A DNA stretch of 64,000 nucleotides from Candidatus Atabeyarchaeum deiterrae (GCA_037310415.1 CP147780.1:1-64000), one strand, 5' to 3'; shown: positions 28,669-35,652, numbered from the stretch's first letter. Numbers and translations are program-made. Notes: generated from the sequence alone by a model not told the origin.

Positions 28669-30285
28669 CTAAGCCAGTAGCCTCTTCGAGACGTATGATC
28701 CATCTCTTGAATATCCGAACTTCTTGTAGTATTCTCTTACGCCGATGGCGCTGGTTACTAGCACTTTCCTTATGTCGAATTGCTCTTTTGCTAGTGTCTC
28801 AGCTTTCTCGAGCAGAAGTGTACCGACTCCTCTGTGCTGCCACTCACCGTCACTTGGAGAATAACCTATCCTAACCGCAGGTCCGTACACGTGAAGCTCC
28901 CTCACGATTGCTGAAGACATCTCCTTGATTTCTGGTCGATATGCCTTCTCAGACGGGATTCTAAGTCTTAGAAAACCTAGCAGGATGTCTTGGTAAACGT
29001 CTTCGCAACTAATGAAGAATTCATTGCCATCGGACGCTTCATGAAGAAGATAGATAATGTGTACATCAAAAGGATTTGGCTCCAATCCAAGTGTTTCATG
29101 AACGCGTTGCACTTCTCGGCACCGAATGCATGGGCAACGTTTCGCCATCGTGATCAAAGTTTTCTGAACGAGGCTGTGAAGATCGCTTCTTTTCGGTCCC
29201 GCTTCAATCAACTTGGCTGGAATATCTCGTTGCATCCTTTGTACACGCACCCACCGTGGGATAATATGTGAGATCTCAACCAGCAATTTGACGCATTCAT
29301 TAGTATCATATGGCTTGTATTTCCCCTCTTTCCACAGATCGTATAACTTGGTACCTTTCACGACTAAGGTCGGATATATTTTCAGCATATCTGGCTTGAA
29401 GCGAGGATCTGAAAAGATAGTTCTGAATGCTTCGAGGTCTTTCTCAAAGTTGCTTCCTGGAAGTCCAGGCATCATATGATAAACAACTTTGAGTCCAGCA
29501 TCCTTCAGAAGTCTGGTCGCCGTCACAACGTCTTGGACTGTGTGTCCACGATTCACGAGCTTGTATATGTCGTCATAGACTGTCTGGACGCCAAGTTCAA
29601 CTCTCGTCACCCCCATCTTGAGCATCTGATCTATCTGCTCACAGCGTGCATAATCTGGACGGGTCTCAACAGTTATGCCCGTGTTTCTCGTGGGTGAGAT
29701 TTCCGCGAGCCTCTGTGCCTCTTCCAAGTTTGATGAGTCTCTTCCAGTGATGCCGTCTAGACACTTTTGAATGAAGAATTCCTGGTAATCTAATGGCATT
29801 GATGGAAAAGTTCCGCCCATGATTATGAGTTCAACTTTGTCGGTGTTGTGTCCAAGCGCTCTCAGTTGACTCAGTCTATTCACGACTTGTCTCTCAGGGT
29901 CGAAGTTGTTTTGAATCGCTCTCATGGTTGCTGGTTCATGGCCAGTATAGCTTTGGGGAGTATCTCCAAACGGGGAGCTTATGCCTCCAGGACAATAGAC
30001 GCAAGGTGATTCCTTAGGACAAGGATAGGGCTTCGCCATGACGGCAACTATTGCTATTCCCGAATAGGTCCTAGAAGGCTTCGTCCTGAGAATTGGCAAC
30101 AGTGCTTTCGCTTCTTCAGGAGAAGCCGCAGCCAGAATGTCTGCGTTCCGAGGCATTAAGCTTAAAGAGTACTCAGAACAGACTCTTGCCTTCAGTTTGT
30201 CTAGTTCCTTCCTACTCTTGATTTTTCCACTAATCATTTCATTTATGATCGTTCTCAGCGCTTGATTCTGCGACTCGGATGACAC
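28669..30285 (-). CDS. elp3: tRNA uridine(34) acetyltransferase Elp3 (radical SAM + KAT)
   Basis: CVYCPGG, QSYTGHEP, MGGTF, ETRPD, ELGVQT, LKIYPTLV, RDIP, CIRCREV, RELHVYG, QHRGVG. Confidence 0.96.
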   Translation of the reverse strand: MSSESQNQALRTIINEMISGKIKSRKELDKLKARVCSEYSLSLMPRNADILAAASPEEAKALLPILRTKPSRTYSGIAIVAVMAKPYPCPKESPCVYCPGGISSPFGDTPQSYTGHEPATMRAIQNNFDPERQVVNRLSQLRALGHNTDKVELIIMGGTFPSMPLDYQEFFIQKCLDGITGRDSSNLEEAQRLAEISPTRNTGITVETRPDYARCEQIDQMLKMGVTRVELGVQTVYDDIYKLVNRGHTVQDVVTATRLLKDAGLKVVYHMMPGLPGSNFEKDLEAFRTIFSDPRFKPDMLKIYPTLVVKGTKLYDLWKEGKYKPYDTNECVKLLVEISHIIPRWVRVQRMQRDIPAKLIEAGPKRSDLHSLVQKTLITMAKRCPCIRCREVQRVHETLGLEPNPFDVHIIYLLHEASDGNEFFISCEDVYQDILLGFLRLRIPSEKAYRPEIKEMSSAIVRELHVYGPAVRIGYSPSDGEWQHRGVGTLLLEKAETLAKEQFDIRKVLVTSAIGVREYYKKFGYSRDGSYVSKRLLA

Positions 30286-30665: not shown

Positions 30666-32003
30666 TTATTCTGCTTTGACTACCTTTTTTGTATTCGAAT
30701 TTGACACTCCCACCCATGAACGGTGTGGGATTCTTGCTTCCCTTTGAGATTTCATGACCCATTCATGGTAGTTCCACCTCAGGAGCAAGGGCTCTGCCAT
30801 GAGCCCGCTACCGCTGGTATCCCCTCCACCCGCACCTTGAATGAGTGATGAGGGAAACCTGTTCACGGCTACCTTCAACAAGTTCACAGCGCCGTTAACA
30901 TCTGCATTAAGACTTCTATGCATTTCATGGCAAACCGTTAGGCCCCTCTTGACTCTGCTCCCATGCTGTTTTCCGCACAGGCAGCACGTCCTGGATGTGC
31001 CTCTCTCAGGCACTTTCCTGACCGCTATGCCATACTCTTCCCCAAGCTCAACCAGCCGCCTCCAAATGAGGTCGAATGCCCAGAAGTTGTGCACCTTCTG
31101 ATCCACCCTCCTACCGCGGGTAGGTTGCCTCCTGATCCCATTAAGGTCGCCAACGTACAGCTCTCCAAATCCCTTCTCCTCCAGGAGTAAGAAGATTGTC
31201 CTCGCCATGGCGTATATGGCGTGTCTGAGCCTCCGCTGCCTCATCCTGAACTGCAGCCCAATGTGCTTGGACGTGTGCCTTCCCCAAGGAAGATTCGACT
31301 GCCTGGAGGCTATCTTCTTCGTGTGGTACACCCAGTCTGAGAGAACTGCCCGACCCGAGAAGATCGTTGGTCGCTCTCCTTCCATGTGGAGTGCTGCGAG
31401 GTTACATACGCCCACATCCAGGGACGCCTTCCTACATGCGTCGATTCGACTCGGAGGCTCCCAGGGAACCTCGACTGGAACGTGAGCATACCAATTCCTG
31501 CTGAACTCATCTCTCCACACCTCGAGCCTCCCCTGCTTTCCCACCCACAAATCCCCGCACCGGTAAGGAACCCTGGTGCCCCTGCCCATCGAGATTTCAT
31601 TAACGTTAGCACTCCAACCATCATTCCTCACGTAGAATACTGTCGTCTCTCGTTTCCCGTTTCTCTTCCTGTACCTCGGTGGAGCCACGCTGCGGATGTG
31701 TGGCGGCAGCTTCCCACTCTTCTTGAGTCTCAAGAGGGCGTAGTAGCTCCGCCACGCTTCATCAAGCTTTGCTAGCAGTGCTTGGGCCTTGCATGTGCCG
31801 AGTTTCCTGAATGCTTCGGTGTCCTTGAGGGCTTTGCACTGGCCGGCATATGACGGCATCTTCGCATGCTGATGGTTGGCTCTTCTCCTCTCGTAGTTCG
31901 CGGTGTTCCATAGAGTGGCTGACTGCTCGGCATATTCGCGGAGCTTCGCCTCTACACACTGGGTGGGTCTCAACAGGGCAGTTGAAGTCCTCAGCATAAG
32001 CAA
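30666..32003 (-). CDS. tnpB: RNA-guided endonuclease TnpB
   Basis: LWNTANYERR N-terminus, RuvC-I SLDVGVCNL, RuvC-II YVGDL, ERGTSRTCCLCG zinc finger, RuvC-III NADVNGAVN. Confidence 0.92.
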   Translation of the reverse strand: MLMLRTSTALLRPTQCVEAKLREYAEQSATLWNTANYERRRANHQHAKMPSYAGQCKALKDTEAFRKLGTCKAQALLAKLDEAWRSYYALLRLKKSGKLPPHIRSVAPPRYRKRNGKRETTVFYVRNDGWSANVNEISMGRGTRVPYRCGDLWVGKQGRLEVWRDEFSRNWYAHVPVEVPWEPPSRIDACRKASLDVGVCNLAALHMEGERPTIFSGRAVLSDWVYHTKKIASRQSNLPWGRHTSKHIGLQFRMRQRRLRHAIYAMARTIFLLLEEKGFGELYVGDLNGIRRQPTRGRRVDQKVHNFWAFDLIWRRLVELGEEYGIAVRKVPERGTSRTCCLCGKQHGSRVKRGLTVCHEMHRSLNADVNGAVNLLKVAVNRFPSSLIQGAGGGDTSGSGLMAEPLLLRWNYHEWVMKSQREARIPHRSWVGVSNSNTKKVVKAE

Positions 32004-32413: not shown

Positions 32414-35404
32414 GTGGCAGTCAAGGAGATTCCAAAACAGCTTTCGCTTCGAGAGCTTGAGCAGAGAACCTTGGAAGAGTGGCGTGTCAACAAGATATAC
32501 GAGAAAGCAAAGGAGAAGCTGAAAGGAAAACCTCGCTTCAACTTCATAGATGGACCGCCGTACACCACCGGTTCGATCCACTTGGGGACAGCTTGGAACA
32601 AGATAATGAAAGACATAGTCCTGCGATTCAAGAGGATGAGAGGATTTGAGGTAAACGACACACCTGGATACGATATGCATGGGCTACCTATAGAAGTCAA
32701 AGTGGAGCAGGAGCTGAATATCAAAAGCAAGAAGGAAATAGAGACGAATGTCGTCAAGTTCGTAGAGAAATGTAGAGAGTTCGCGCTTAGCAACTTAGAT
32801 ACGATGAGTCAGCAATTCAGTGAGCTTGGAGTTTGGATGGATTGGAAGAAACCCTACATGACGCTGAGCGATTCATACATAGAAGGAATATGGAAGACAA
32901 TCAAACTTGCCTATGATAGGGGCTACGTGTATAGAGGAGTGAAGGTTCTCGAAGTCTGCCCAAGATGTGAGACGGCGCTCGCGAGACACGAGCATGAATA
33001 TCACACCGTCACCGACGTTTCAATATTCGTGAAGTTCAAGATTAAGTCAAGACCAAATGAATTTTTGTTAGTGTGGACTACTACACCGTGGACATTGCCA
33101 GCCAACTTGGCAGTTATGGTTCACCCGGACTTCGAGTATGTTAAGGCAAAGGTTGGGACCGAGGTTTGGGTAATAGCCAAAGCTATGGCAACAACCTTGC
33201 TGCAAGGCGTGTTCGAAAAGAACTTTGAGGTTCTCGAAGAATTCAAGGGAATGGATCTCGAGGGATTGAAATATGAGCACCCCTTAGTACAGGAGGTCCC
33301 GATTCAAGCTGAACTCGACAAGAAGTACAAGAAAGCACATACTGTTGTTCTTAGCGCTGACTACGTGACTCTTGAACAGGGAACCGGGTTGGTTCATTGT
33401 GCGCCAGGGCACGGACCTGAAGACTTCGAAGTGGGAAAGCAGAACGGCTTGCCTCCGTTCTCACCTTTGGATGTTTCTAAGTTTTCGTCTGAAGGCGGCA
33501 AATATGCAGGCATGTTCCCCAAGAAAGCTGACGAGCTCATAATCAACGACTTGGAGCACAAAGGGCTACTAGTATACAAGGGCACCATAGAGCATGAATA
33601 TGCTCATTGCTGGAGGTGCAAGAGCCCGCTTCTGTTCCAAGCCACAAGCCAATGGTTCATAAAAGTGGTCAGCTTAAAGGATGAAATGCACAAAATGAAC
33701 AGTGAAACATCATGGGTTCCTGACTGGGCTGGCCACCAGTGGTTCAAGAACTGGATTGATGGACTACAGGACTGGTGCATATCTCGACAGAGATACTGGG
33801 GAGCCCCCTTACCCATGTGGATCTGTGACAAGTGTGGGCATGTGGAGGTTCTTGGTTCAAAGCAGGAACTTGTCGCAAAATCTGGCAAAACACCAAAGGA
33901 GCTCCACAGACCTTGGGTTGACGAAGCAACCTGGAAATGTGAACAGTGCCATGGAAAAGGTACGAAGCGTAGAATATCCGATGTCTTAGATGTTTGGCTT
34001 GACAGTGGATCATGCATATGGGCTACGCTACCCGTCACAACCGGAATGGCAGACTATGATGACTGGAAGGAACTGGATTTCATAATTGAAGGGAAGGAAC
34101 AGATAAGGGGATGGTTCAATTCGCTCATGTGCTCAAGCATGGTTGCGTACGGCAGGTGGCCATACAAATCAGTTTACATGCATGGATTCATGTGCGATGA
34201 ACAAGGACGGGAAATGCACAAGTCGCTCGGTAACTATATTGAACCATCAGAAGTCATACCAAAACACGGCGTCGAATCATATAGGTTCTATGTCTCCAAA
34301 TCGGCGCCACCAGGCGAAGATATACGCTTTAATTGGAAGGATGTCGCGGACACGGAGAGGTTCTTAAACATTACTTGGAACGTCTACGTATTCGCATCAA
34401 CGTTCATGGCTGAGGCTGGATTCAATCCTGGCAAGGTCAGGAGCACAAAAGTTCAGCTTCTGCCAGAAGATAAGTGGATACTCTCGCGCACAAACTCCGT
34501 GGTCAAACAGATAACCAACGAACTGGATGGCTACCAGATACCCACTGTGACGAGGCTACTGCAGGATCTGATTGTCAAGGATTTGAGCAGGTGGTACATA
34601 AGATTAATCCGAGCAAGGACATGGGTCACGACTTCAGGCCCAAGCAAGACAGCGGCACTCAACACATTATTCAATGTCCTCGAGAAACTGACTTACATAC
34701 TCGCGCCAATAACTCCCATACTCGCTGAGGCTTTGTACCAGTCGCTTGTCAGACCGACCATGGCGAATCCACCAGAAAGCGTGCATCTTTGCGAGTGGCC
34801 AAAGCACTCAGAAGAACTAATAAACACTGACCTTGAAGCAAAGATGGACCACGTGCGGGAAATAGTCGAAGGAACACTGGCAATAAGACAGGAAGCAAAA
34901 GTAAAACTAAGGTGGCCTTGCAGGAGACTTGTGATAGTTCCCAAGGAAAAAGAATGGGTCGACATACGTGAGCTCCTGGAAGTTGTAAGAGACCAAGCAA
35001 GTGTCAAAGAAGTACATATCCTCAGCAAACTCTTGGCAAAGGACAAGACTGAGGACCTGAGAGAAAAGGAAACCTCGACATGCACGATATACCTTGACGT
35101 ATCAACCACTGAAGAACTTGAATCAGAAAGACTCGCAAAAGACTTCACGCGACAAGTTCAATCACTCAGAAAGAAATATGGATACATTGTGACCGACAAG
35201 ATAGAGCTAGTAGTAGCGAGCAAGGACAAACAAATACTCGAAGGGCTCGAGAAACAAGAACAACAAATCAAGAGCAAGATTGGAGCGGTGAAAATAGAGG
35301 GACTTGGGGAAATGCCAGAAGAACTCAAAGACTACGACGCTAAAGGCGAATTCAAATATCAAGATGAGAAGATTCAGGTAGCGTTCCGACGAAAGAAAAC
35401 TTAA
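32414..35404 (+). CDS. ileS: Isoleucine-tRNA ligase
   Basis: DGPPYTTGSIHLG, GYDMHGLPIE, WTTTPWTLPAN, GTGLVHCAPGHG, DWCISRQRYWG, EQIRGWF, EMHKSLGN. Confidence 0.97.
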   Translation: MAVKEIPKQLSLRELEQRTLEEWRVNKIYEKAKEKLKGKPRFNFIDGPPYTTGSIHLGTAWNKIMKDIVLRFKRMRGFEVNDTPGYDMHGLPIEVKVEQELNIKSKKEIETNVVKFVEKCREFALSNLDTMSQQFSELGVWMDWKKPYMTLSDSYIEGIWKTIKLAYDRGYVYRGVKVLEVCPRCETALARHEHEYHTVTDVSIFVKFKIKSRPNEFLLVWTTTPWTLPANLAVMVHPDFEYVKAKVGTEVWVIAKAMATTLLQGVFEKNFEVLEEFKGMDLEGLKYEHPLVQEVPIQAELDKKYKKAHTVVLSADYVTLEQGTGLVHCAPGHGPEDFEVGKQNGLPPFSPLDVSKFSSEGGKYAGMFPKKADELIINDLEHKGLLVYKGTIEHEYAHCWRCKSPLLFQATSQWFIKVVSLKDEMHKMNSETSWVPDWAGHQWFKNWIDGLQDWCISRQRYWGAPLPMWICDKCGHVEVLGSKQELVAKSGKTPKELHRPWVDEATWKCEQCHGKGTKRRISDVLDVWLDSGSCIWATLPVTTGMADYDDWKELDFIIEGKEQIRGWFNSLMCSSMVAYGRWPYKSVYMHGFMCDEQGREMHKSLGNYIEPSEVIPKHGVESYRFYVSKSAPPGEDIRFNWKDVADTERFLNITWNVYVFASTFMAEAGFNPGKVRSTKVQLLPEDKWILSRTNSVVKQITNELDGYQIPTVTRLLQDLIVKDLSRWYIRLIRARTWVTTSGPSKTAALNTLFNVLEKLTYILAPITPILAEALYQSLVRPTMANPPESVHLCEWPKHSEELINTDLEAKMDHVREIVEGTLAIRQEAKVKLRWPCRRLVIVPKEKEWVDIRELLEVVRDQASVKEVHILSKLLAKDKTEDLREKETSTCTIYLDVSTTEELESERLAKDFTRQVQSLRKKYGYIVTDKIELVVASKDKQILEGLEKQEQQIKSKIGAVKIEGLGEMPEELKDYDAKGEFKYQDEKIQVAFRRKKT

Positions 35405-35440: not shown

Positions 35441-35652
35441 GGGCCCGTGGCTTAGCCTGGCTTACTTTGGGATCATACTTTCGTTTGTTCCCTTTGTCCA
35501 GACAAAGCGACAGTTGATGGCGACAGCCGTCGCCGCGAAGGCCTTATACGACCACGCTTTGTACAAAGCCTGAGACAGCCGTAAGAGTTAGGGTAATCGG
35601 CTAGGCGATTGCCTCTTCGGTAAGATCGTGGGTTCGAATCCCACCGGGCCCA
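35441..35652 (+). tRNA. tRNA-Ile(UAU) with four introns (20a/21, 28/29, 37/38, 44/45)
   Basis: Removing 35463-35503, 35512-35539, 35549-35576 and 35584-35623 gives a 75-nt cloverleaf: GGGCCCG TG GCTT AGCCTGGCTA AAGC G ACGGC CTTATAA GCCGT AGATC GTGGG TTCGAAT CCCAC CGGGCCC A. All four stems pair fully, and BHB-type central helices occur at each junction. Confidence 0.8.

Follow-up and report, generated by a model that had tools for sequence, protein, structure and literature searches.

Candidatus Atabeyarchaeum deiterrae carries, directly after its isoleucyl-tRNA synthetase gene ileS, a five-exon tRNA-Ile(UAU) gene. The gene is very probably functional and very probably supplies this Atabeyarchaeia archaeon with its isoleucine tRNA for AUA. 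Judging from its sequence, it is almost certainly essential. A second result, new here, is that lineages without the agmatidine synthetase TiaS share a predicted isoleucyl-tRNA synthetase (IleRS) whose C-terminal DUF5915 domain is missing its first half. Few solutions are known to the classic problem of decoding AUA as isoleucine while AUG is not misread, and the usual archaeal system consists of tRNA-Ile2(CAU) and TiaS. The UAU route, thought to be rare in archaea, spans whole Asgard classes. Its interest lies in this breadth across Asgard lineages, in a constant intron at position 37/38 and in the linked truncated IleRS.

The window, that is, the whole stretch of DNA that was analysed, comprises 64,000 nt (GCA_037310415.1 CP147780.1:1-64000), and positions are counted from its start. 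The genome is the published Atabeyarchaeia-2 chromosome, closed at 2,756,679 bp, and its nearest relative is Atabeyarchaeia-1 (CP147779.1). The product of ileS contains the Pfam domains tRNA-synt_1, Anticodon_1 and DUF5915. The original prediction placed the tRNA 36 nt downstream of ileS and named Elp3 as present, and both are found (Table 1). Elp3 is the enzyme that initiates xm5U34 modification. An ORF for a TnpB-type transposon nuclease lies between the Elp3 gene and ileS.

Table 1. Features of the ileS/tRNA-Ile(UAU) locus and its upstream neighbours, in window positions.
Feature	Position	Strand	Basis and remarks
Elp3, full-length homologue	28678..30249	-	TIGR01211, 728 bits
TnpB-type transposon nuclease ORF	30669..32003	-	OrfB_IS605 and Cas12f1-like TNB domains
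ileS, isoleucyl-tRNA synthetase	32414..35404	+	ORF; 996 aa from GTG start; stop TAA 35402-35404
pre-tRNA-Ile(UAU), G1 to discriminator A73	35441..35652	+	212 nt, five exons and four introns; CCA not encoded
Exon 1: acceptor 5' strand, U8 G9, D-stem 5' strand, most of D-loop	35441..35462	+	parse and covariation
Intron 1, 41 nt, D-loop	35463..35503	+	BHB central helix CUGG/CCAG 4/4 pairs, inner helix 2 bp
Exon 2: A21, D-stem 3' strand AAGC, G26, A27, C28	35504..35511	+	parse
Intron 2, 28 nt, anticodon stem, position 28/29	35512..35539	+	relaxed BHB, central helix 3/4 pairs
Exon 3: G29-C31 and loop C32 U33 U34 A35 U36 A37	35540..35548	+	sequence, spliced parse
Anticodon TAT (UAU)	35545..35547	+	sequence
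Intron 3, 28 nt, canonical 37/38 position	35549..35576	+	BHB 4/4 pairs, outer helix 3 bp, conserved G-C closing pair
Exon 4: A38 (35577), anticodon-stem 3' strand GCCGU, A44	35577..35583	+	spliced parse
Intron 4, 40 nt, position 44/45	35584..35623	+	BHB GCCG/CGGU 4/4 pairs, inner helix 3 bp; junction ambiguous by one A
Exon 5: variable-loop remainder GAUC, T arm GUGGG-UUCGAAU-CCCAC, acceptor 3' strand, A73 (35652)	35624..35652	+	parse, covariation

The 5' end of the locus (GGGCCCG-UG-GCUU-AGCCUGG) and its 3' end (GUGGG-UUCGAAU-CCCAC-CGGGCCC-A) are the 5' end of a tRNA and its T arm and acceptor strand, 212 nt apart. By the BHB criterion (a 4-bp helix with two 3-nt bulges that hold the cut sites), introns 1, 3 and 4 are full motifs and intron 2 is a relaxed one. 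The BHB score of intron 3 is equalled by only 8 of the 8481 possible junction pairs in the precursor (0.09%), that of intron 4 by only 0.19% and that of intron 1 by only 0.6%. The score of intron 2 is weak, being equalled by 4.7% of the junction pairs. Excision of intron 2 leaves a perfect anticodon stem, ACGGC/GCCGU. The original prediction described intron 3 and overlooked the other three. The helix that it proposed at 37/38 is present, with CUUA (35543-35546) facing UGAG (35571-35574) in the pairs C32-G, U33-A, U34.G and A35-U.

Joined in silico, the five exons form a 75-nt canonical cloverleaf in which all stems are perfect, and ARAGORN calls this product tRNA-Ile(tat). A minor counterpoint is that RNAfold prefers a non-cloverleaf structure for the unmodified spliced sequence (-37.0 vs -32.5 kcal/mol). 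The anticodon loop CT-TAT-AA and the discriminator A73, both previously noted, are confirmed, the loop being split between 35543-35548 and A38 at 35577. The features of isoleucine identity that can be read at the sequence level are A73, A37, A38, the loop CUUAUAA and an acceptor that is the same as in the tRNA-Ile(GAU) of the genome.

A heptamer, ACAAAGC, at the boundary of intron 1 and exon 2 (35502-35508, including the D-stem 3' strand) is exactly copied in intron 3 (35563-35569). The copy may have arisen by chance or reflect the origin of the intron. Because of this copy, RNAfold pairs the D-stem with AAGC inside intron 3. That parse was rejected, as it leaves no anticodon arm downstream and the orthologues disagree with it. 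A C/D-box guide in the introns (CUGA at an intron end, UGAUG in intron 2) was also considered and was dropped, since the pieces are not conserved together.

Among the relatives, a UAU gene directly follows ileS in three of three Atabey, four of four Odin, three of three Hermod and two of three Borr genomes, and further ileS-adjacent UAU genes occur among named MAGs. The UAU switch is thus not confined to the present lineage, contrary to the original proposal. T34 is invariant in all UAU genes compared (11-12 genes from four Asgard classes). Since all 11 orthologues carry T at the position of 35545, an assembly error is very unlikely. The 37/38 intron is present in 12 of 12 UAU genes of the four classes, and the other introns come and go. 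Pairing in the helix at 37/38 is maintained in 12 genes. At the site of intron 1, an intron is found in the Atabey, Odin and Borr orthologues and none in Hermod; Atabey, Odin and Borr also have an intron at the site of intron 4. Intron 2 is missing from the orthologues of the relative G002, Odin and Borr, where the stem is uninterrupted. The Atabeyarchaeia-1 orthologue (genome 36840-37083) apparently has five introns, including a second one in the D-loop. Intron counts in orthologues are approximate, as the motif-free template alignment merged neighbouring introns in some of them.

Covariation was assessed on 12 aligned sequences, namely 11 UAU genes and the CAU gene of Freyarchaeia. The Hermod rows were misaligned by one MAFFT alignment, and other alignments were used instead. 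Stem cells are paired in 96.4%, nine pairs show double-sided changes, and none of 500 shuffles reaches these values. By this pattern of substitution, the gene is evidently under purifying selection. The 37/38 intron begins with the word YGRCCNCGCU (35549-35558 in the window), which is conserved across the four Asgard classes in 11 orthologues. Its conservation exceeds the needs of the BHB motif, because the word lies largely in the unpaired internal loop.

AUA is a heavily used codon in this genome. ATA makes up 24.8 per 1000 codons and 35% of isoleucine codons in 1255 long ORFs, and 36 of the 55 isoleucine codons in ileS itself. A search for tiaS, proposed as a check, found none: PF08489, the model of the TiaS FLD domain, matched in four of four archaeal controls and nowhere in the closed 2.76-Mb genome. 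At the phylum scale, the sample comprised 268 Asgard genomes with a completeness of 85% or more. TiaS matched in 122 of 130 genomes belonging to 17 families and in none of 138 genomes belonging to 11 families, which leaves 146 of the 268 without a match.

No third CAU tRNA, that is, no tRNA-Ile2, was found in a T-arm/acceptor scan or in an anticodon-arm scan of the genome, in which several expected tRNAs (e.g., those for Asp and Cys) have yet to turn up. With the anticodon CAT, the published tRNAscan-SE table lists just two genes, those for elongator Met (acceptor GCCGAGG) and for the initiator. The genome-wide anticodon-arm scan for CAU, UAU and GAU lends weak support to the absence of CAU, because it is noisy and missed known genes. 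It is therefore likely, but not proven, that the genome has no CAU Ile2 gene. A hidden tRNA-Ile(GAU) lies at genome 459473-459655 (+), with about three introns, one of which falls inside the anticodon at 35/36; it is missing from the published table. Its acceptor, GGGCCCG/CGGGCCC, is identical to that of tRNA-Ile(UAU).

A hidden, heavily interrupted tRNA-Ile2(CAU) could still be the main AUA reader if its C34 were modified by an enzyme without the TiaS FLD domain, which would leave the UAU tRNA an auxiliary role. Every catalogue of the genome lacks several of the expected tRNAs, our own finder also missed known genes with unusually placed introns, and a single TiaS domain model was searched. 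We nevertheless judge this very improbable. The model performed as described above on the controls and on both groups of families, and the UAU gene is found only in families without TiaS. Freyarchaeia, with an equal intron load, has a readily found Ile2(CAU). Replacement of CAU by UAU also has precedents in ARMAN, Nanoarchaeum and Korarchaeum (PMC3239211, PMC6000648, PMC8450103). The ARMAN archaea (Micrarchaeota/Parvarchaeota) have a tRNA-Ile(UAU) with a 37/38 intron in genomes without TiaS (Fujishima et al. 2011, PMC3239211). Nanoarchaeum equitans and Candidatus Korarchaeum cryptofilum have a tRNA-Ile3(UAU) without TiaS, reported in two of 167 genomes (PMC8450103, PMC6000648). For Asgard archaea, we found no published description of AUA decoding by UAU without TiaS.

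If the UAU tRNA is taken as the AUA reader, it might be functional and yet ambiguous. Its U34 would then be bare or carry an Elp3-type xm5U, and the tRNA would read both AUA and AUG or be partly charged by MetRS. Elp3 is indeed encoded 5 kb upstream, and the tRNA-Ile(UAU) of Mycoplasma mobile misreads AUG on E. coli ribosomes (PMC3575796). However, misreading is prevented by the cognate ribosome in M. mobile. AUG and AUA each occur at about 25 per 1000 codons, and an Ile/Met ambiguity would touch most proteins. Many deeply diverged lineages have retained the UAU system, a point in favour of accurate decoding. Ambiguity is highly improbable on these grounds.

The gene and its anticodon are already on public record, but as a doubtful and undiscussed gene. 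Supplementary Data 4 of Valentin-Alvarado et al. 2024 (PMC11291895) lists it as tRNA number 1 of Atabeyarchaeota_2, at 35441-35652, Ile TAT, with introns at 35525-35539 and 35549-35576, a tRNAscan-SE score of 52.4 and the remark 'possible pseudo'. Other tRNA coordinates in that table agree with the matches found here. Isoleucine is unmentioned in the main text of that paper, and Ile and UAU are unmentioned in a 2026 preprint on Asgard tRNA introns. Default ARAGORN and Rfam runs on the window gave no match at the tRNA locus, and standard finders fail there because the gene has four introns. ARAGORN -i returned a Gln(ttg) with a 130-nt intron, which is spurious, as the parse leaves no D arm. The low tRNAscan-SE score arises because two introns stayed inside its 'mature' sequence; removal of all four gives perfect stems.

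A related copy of tRNA-Ile(UAU) is present at genome ~126564-126692 (-). Of this second gene, which is of the Atabeyarchaeia-1/Odin type (acceptor CGCTCCC), the 3' two-thirds are left. The introns at 37/38 and 44/45 can still be recognised, the anticodon loop CCTTATA has become ACGTTAA, the T-loop is mutated and there is no 5' half. This relic may go back to a paralogue since lost or to an integration event. That the ileS-adjacent gene is itself a decaying pseudogene, with AUA decoded by something else, is hardly credible: the published remark and score, the failure of the standard finders and the existence of a truly decayed copy at ~126.6 kb in the same genome speak for it, but the score is an artefact, exon sequences are maintained in four classes through compensatory changes, AUA is heavily used and neither TiaS nor another decoder was found, and the real relic shows by contrast what decay looks like. 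The published annotation as a possible pseudogene is corrected on this basis, and the case shows that standard tRNA finders misjudge essential genes in intron-rich genomes.

The synthetase differs between archaea with and without TiaS. In the ileS product of the window, DUF5915 is matched only at about profile positions 85-191, with 52 bits, and the first half of the domain is missing. The IleRS of Freyarchaeia matches profile 1-194 with 163 bits. Among 41 relatives, every genome that matches TiaS has a full DUF5915 (profile 1-194, 95-162 bits) in an IleRS of ~1050-1100 aa, and every TiaS-less family has the domain at ~80-190 only (35-58 bits) in an IleRS that, outside the family f9, is ~985-1045 aa long. 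In the 268 genomes, the full type (E <= 1e-20) was found in 124 of 130 genomes of TiaS families vs 9 of 138 of TiaS-less families; as related genomes are not independent, these counts describe a pattern and are not a test of it. Nine genomes of Loki-like TiaS-less families (G105, G107, G111, G123, G124, G126, G129, G130 and G132) are the full-type exceptions, with 76-118 bits. They may be second ileS copies, contamination or genuine exceptions. DPANN genomes, labelled Aenigmatarchaeota, Micrarchaeota and Iainarchaeum, have the truncated IleRS type as well. TiaS had no match in five genomes with truncated IleRS (one of Loki type), the completeness of which is not established.

The Loki-like family f9 stands apart in the form of its synthetase. 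Its IleRS (L070, L071 and L072) has a C-terminal extension of ~40 aa with a zinc-ribbon-like motif, C-x5-C ... C-P-x-C, and no tRNA follows ileS. The extension is missing from the Atabey, Odin, Hermod and Borr enzymes. No AUA decoder of f9 was found by a gapped pattern, by a covariance model of anticodon and intron, by a 5'-end pattern or by inspection downstream of ileS. The covariance model was too specific, as strict filters lost even the Freyarchaeia CAU row on which it was trained.

The truncated IleRS tracks TiaS-less archaea, and enzyme and tRNA are therefore probably co-adapted, as in Mycoplasma mobile. Such co-adaptation is plausible because of the precedent in that bacterium, in which one IleRS residue confers specificity for UAU (Taniguchi et al. 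2013, PMC3575796).

The original prediction saw the trace of a CAU ancestor in the intron helix, where U34 faces G and C34 would pair perfectly. The data are compatible with such an ancestor. Freyarchaeia, which is TiaS-positive, has a four-intron tRNA-Ile2(CAU) whose 37/38 intron ends in the same UGAGA word with the same G-C closing pair, and C34 pairs there with the G of UGAG. The base that faces U34 is not diagnostic, however. It is G in six UAU genes (Atabey-2, an LC30-type genome and four Odin genomes), A in four (Hermod and Borr) and U, a mismatch, in one (Atabey-1). The G.U wobble is merely tolerated and is not a dated scar. That a C-to-U change in a CAU gene gave rise to the UAU genes fits these sequences, though weakly, and the switch, if real, is older than these Asgard classes.

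A eukaryote-like solution to the decoding problem was also suggested, and it finds partial support. Eukaryotic cytosolic tRNA-Ile(UAU) is encoded by an intron-containing gene, and its anticodon is modified to pseudouridine-A-pseudouridine (PMC8879553, PMC6000648). The part that stands is the conserved 37/38 intron. No extra Pus1-type synthase (TruA family, PF01416) was found: Atabey, Odin and Borr have one gene per genome, as do TiaS-positive families, and none was found in three Hermod genomes. Moreover, the IleRS here is without a subdomain that eukaryotes keep. For the eukaryotic cytosolic IleRS chains 9w01_B and 8wnd_A, the alignment to the full-type enzyme of Freyarchaeia covers all of its DUF5915 region, and the eukaryote-like reading is only partly supported for this reason. 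An inheritance of eukaryotic tRNA-Ile(UAU) from such archaea does not follow from these data.

In the proposed mechanism, the precursor would be cut by the archaeal splicing endonuclease, the exons would be ligated and CCA would be added. The tRNA would then be charged by the IleRS encoded just upstream. U34 would pair with the A of AUA, and the tRNA would thereby replace the pair of tRNA-Ile2(CAU) and TiaS. Two candidate ways to avoid misreading of AUG are a modification of U34 or U36 on the intron-containing precursor and a property of the ribosome.

A joint reading of enzyme and tRNA can be put forward only as a speculation, and we consider it rather unlikely to be right as a whole. The truncated IleRS and the intron-bearing tRNA-Ile(UAU) would form a co-evolving AUA module, in which the missing half of DUF5915 may be the part that reads agmatidine-34. 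By ancient inheritance or transfer, this module would have taken the place of TiaS and tRNA-Ile2 in roughly half of the Asgard genomes sampled and in several DPANN lineages, and its genes are still linked in four Asgard classes. The 37/38 intron, which is always kept and has a conserved 5' word, may be required for the modification of U34 or U36 on the precursor, as in eukaryotes. These lineages supply enzymes and tRNAs for asking how IleRS distinguishes U34 from agmatidine-34 and why the anticodon-side intron persists.

Several known systems resemble the one described here. In ARMAN, UAU likewise replaces tRNA-Ile2(CAU) in the absence of TiaS, the ARMAN-2 gene has a 37/38 intron in a strict BHB, and genomes labelled Micrarchaeota carry the same truncated IleRS type as the window. 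However, the ARMAN-2 gene has a single intron of 25 nt, compared with four here, and in the DPANN loci examined ileS is not followed by a tRNA of this kind, whereas it is so directly in the present genome. The tRNA-Ile3(UAU) of Nanoarchaeum and Korarchaeum is also a rare archaeal UAU tRNA that makes tRNA-Ile2(CAU) unnecessary, and the Korarchaeum gene also has an intron. These tRNAs were reported as species-level oddities, whereas the Asgard trait covers whole classes.

The tRNA-Ile2(CAU)/TiaS system of Freyarchaeia does the same job, reading AUA and not AUG. Its tRNA shares the acceptor stem GGGCCCG and a 37/38 intron that ends in UGAGA and has the G-C closing pair. The two systems differ in that Freyarchaeia has C34, TiaS and a full DUF5915, while the window has U34, no TiaS and half of DUF5915.

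Outside the archaea, eukaryotic tRNA-Ile(UAU) is similar in that UAU is genomically encoded and the intron next to the anticodon is kept, as it is here in 12 of 12 genes. It is different in that no dedicated Pus1-like paralogue was found in the Asgard genomes compared and their IleRS is truncated; eukaryotes also use IAU, and archaea are without it. The tRNA-Ile2(UAU) of M. mobile is similar in that the enzyme that modifies C34 has been lost, the tRNA has UAU and the IleRS is altered in its C-terminal part, which reads the anticodon (PMC3575796). M. mobile, however, is a bacterium without introns in this tRNA, its U34 is unmodified, and the adaptation of its IleRS consists of a single Arg and not of the loss of a subdomain.
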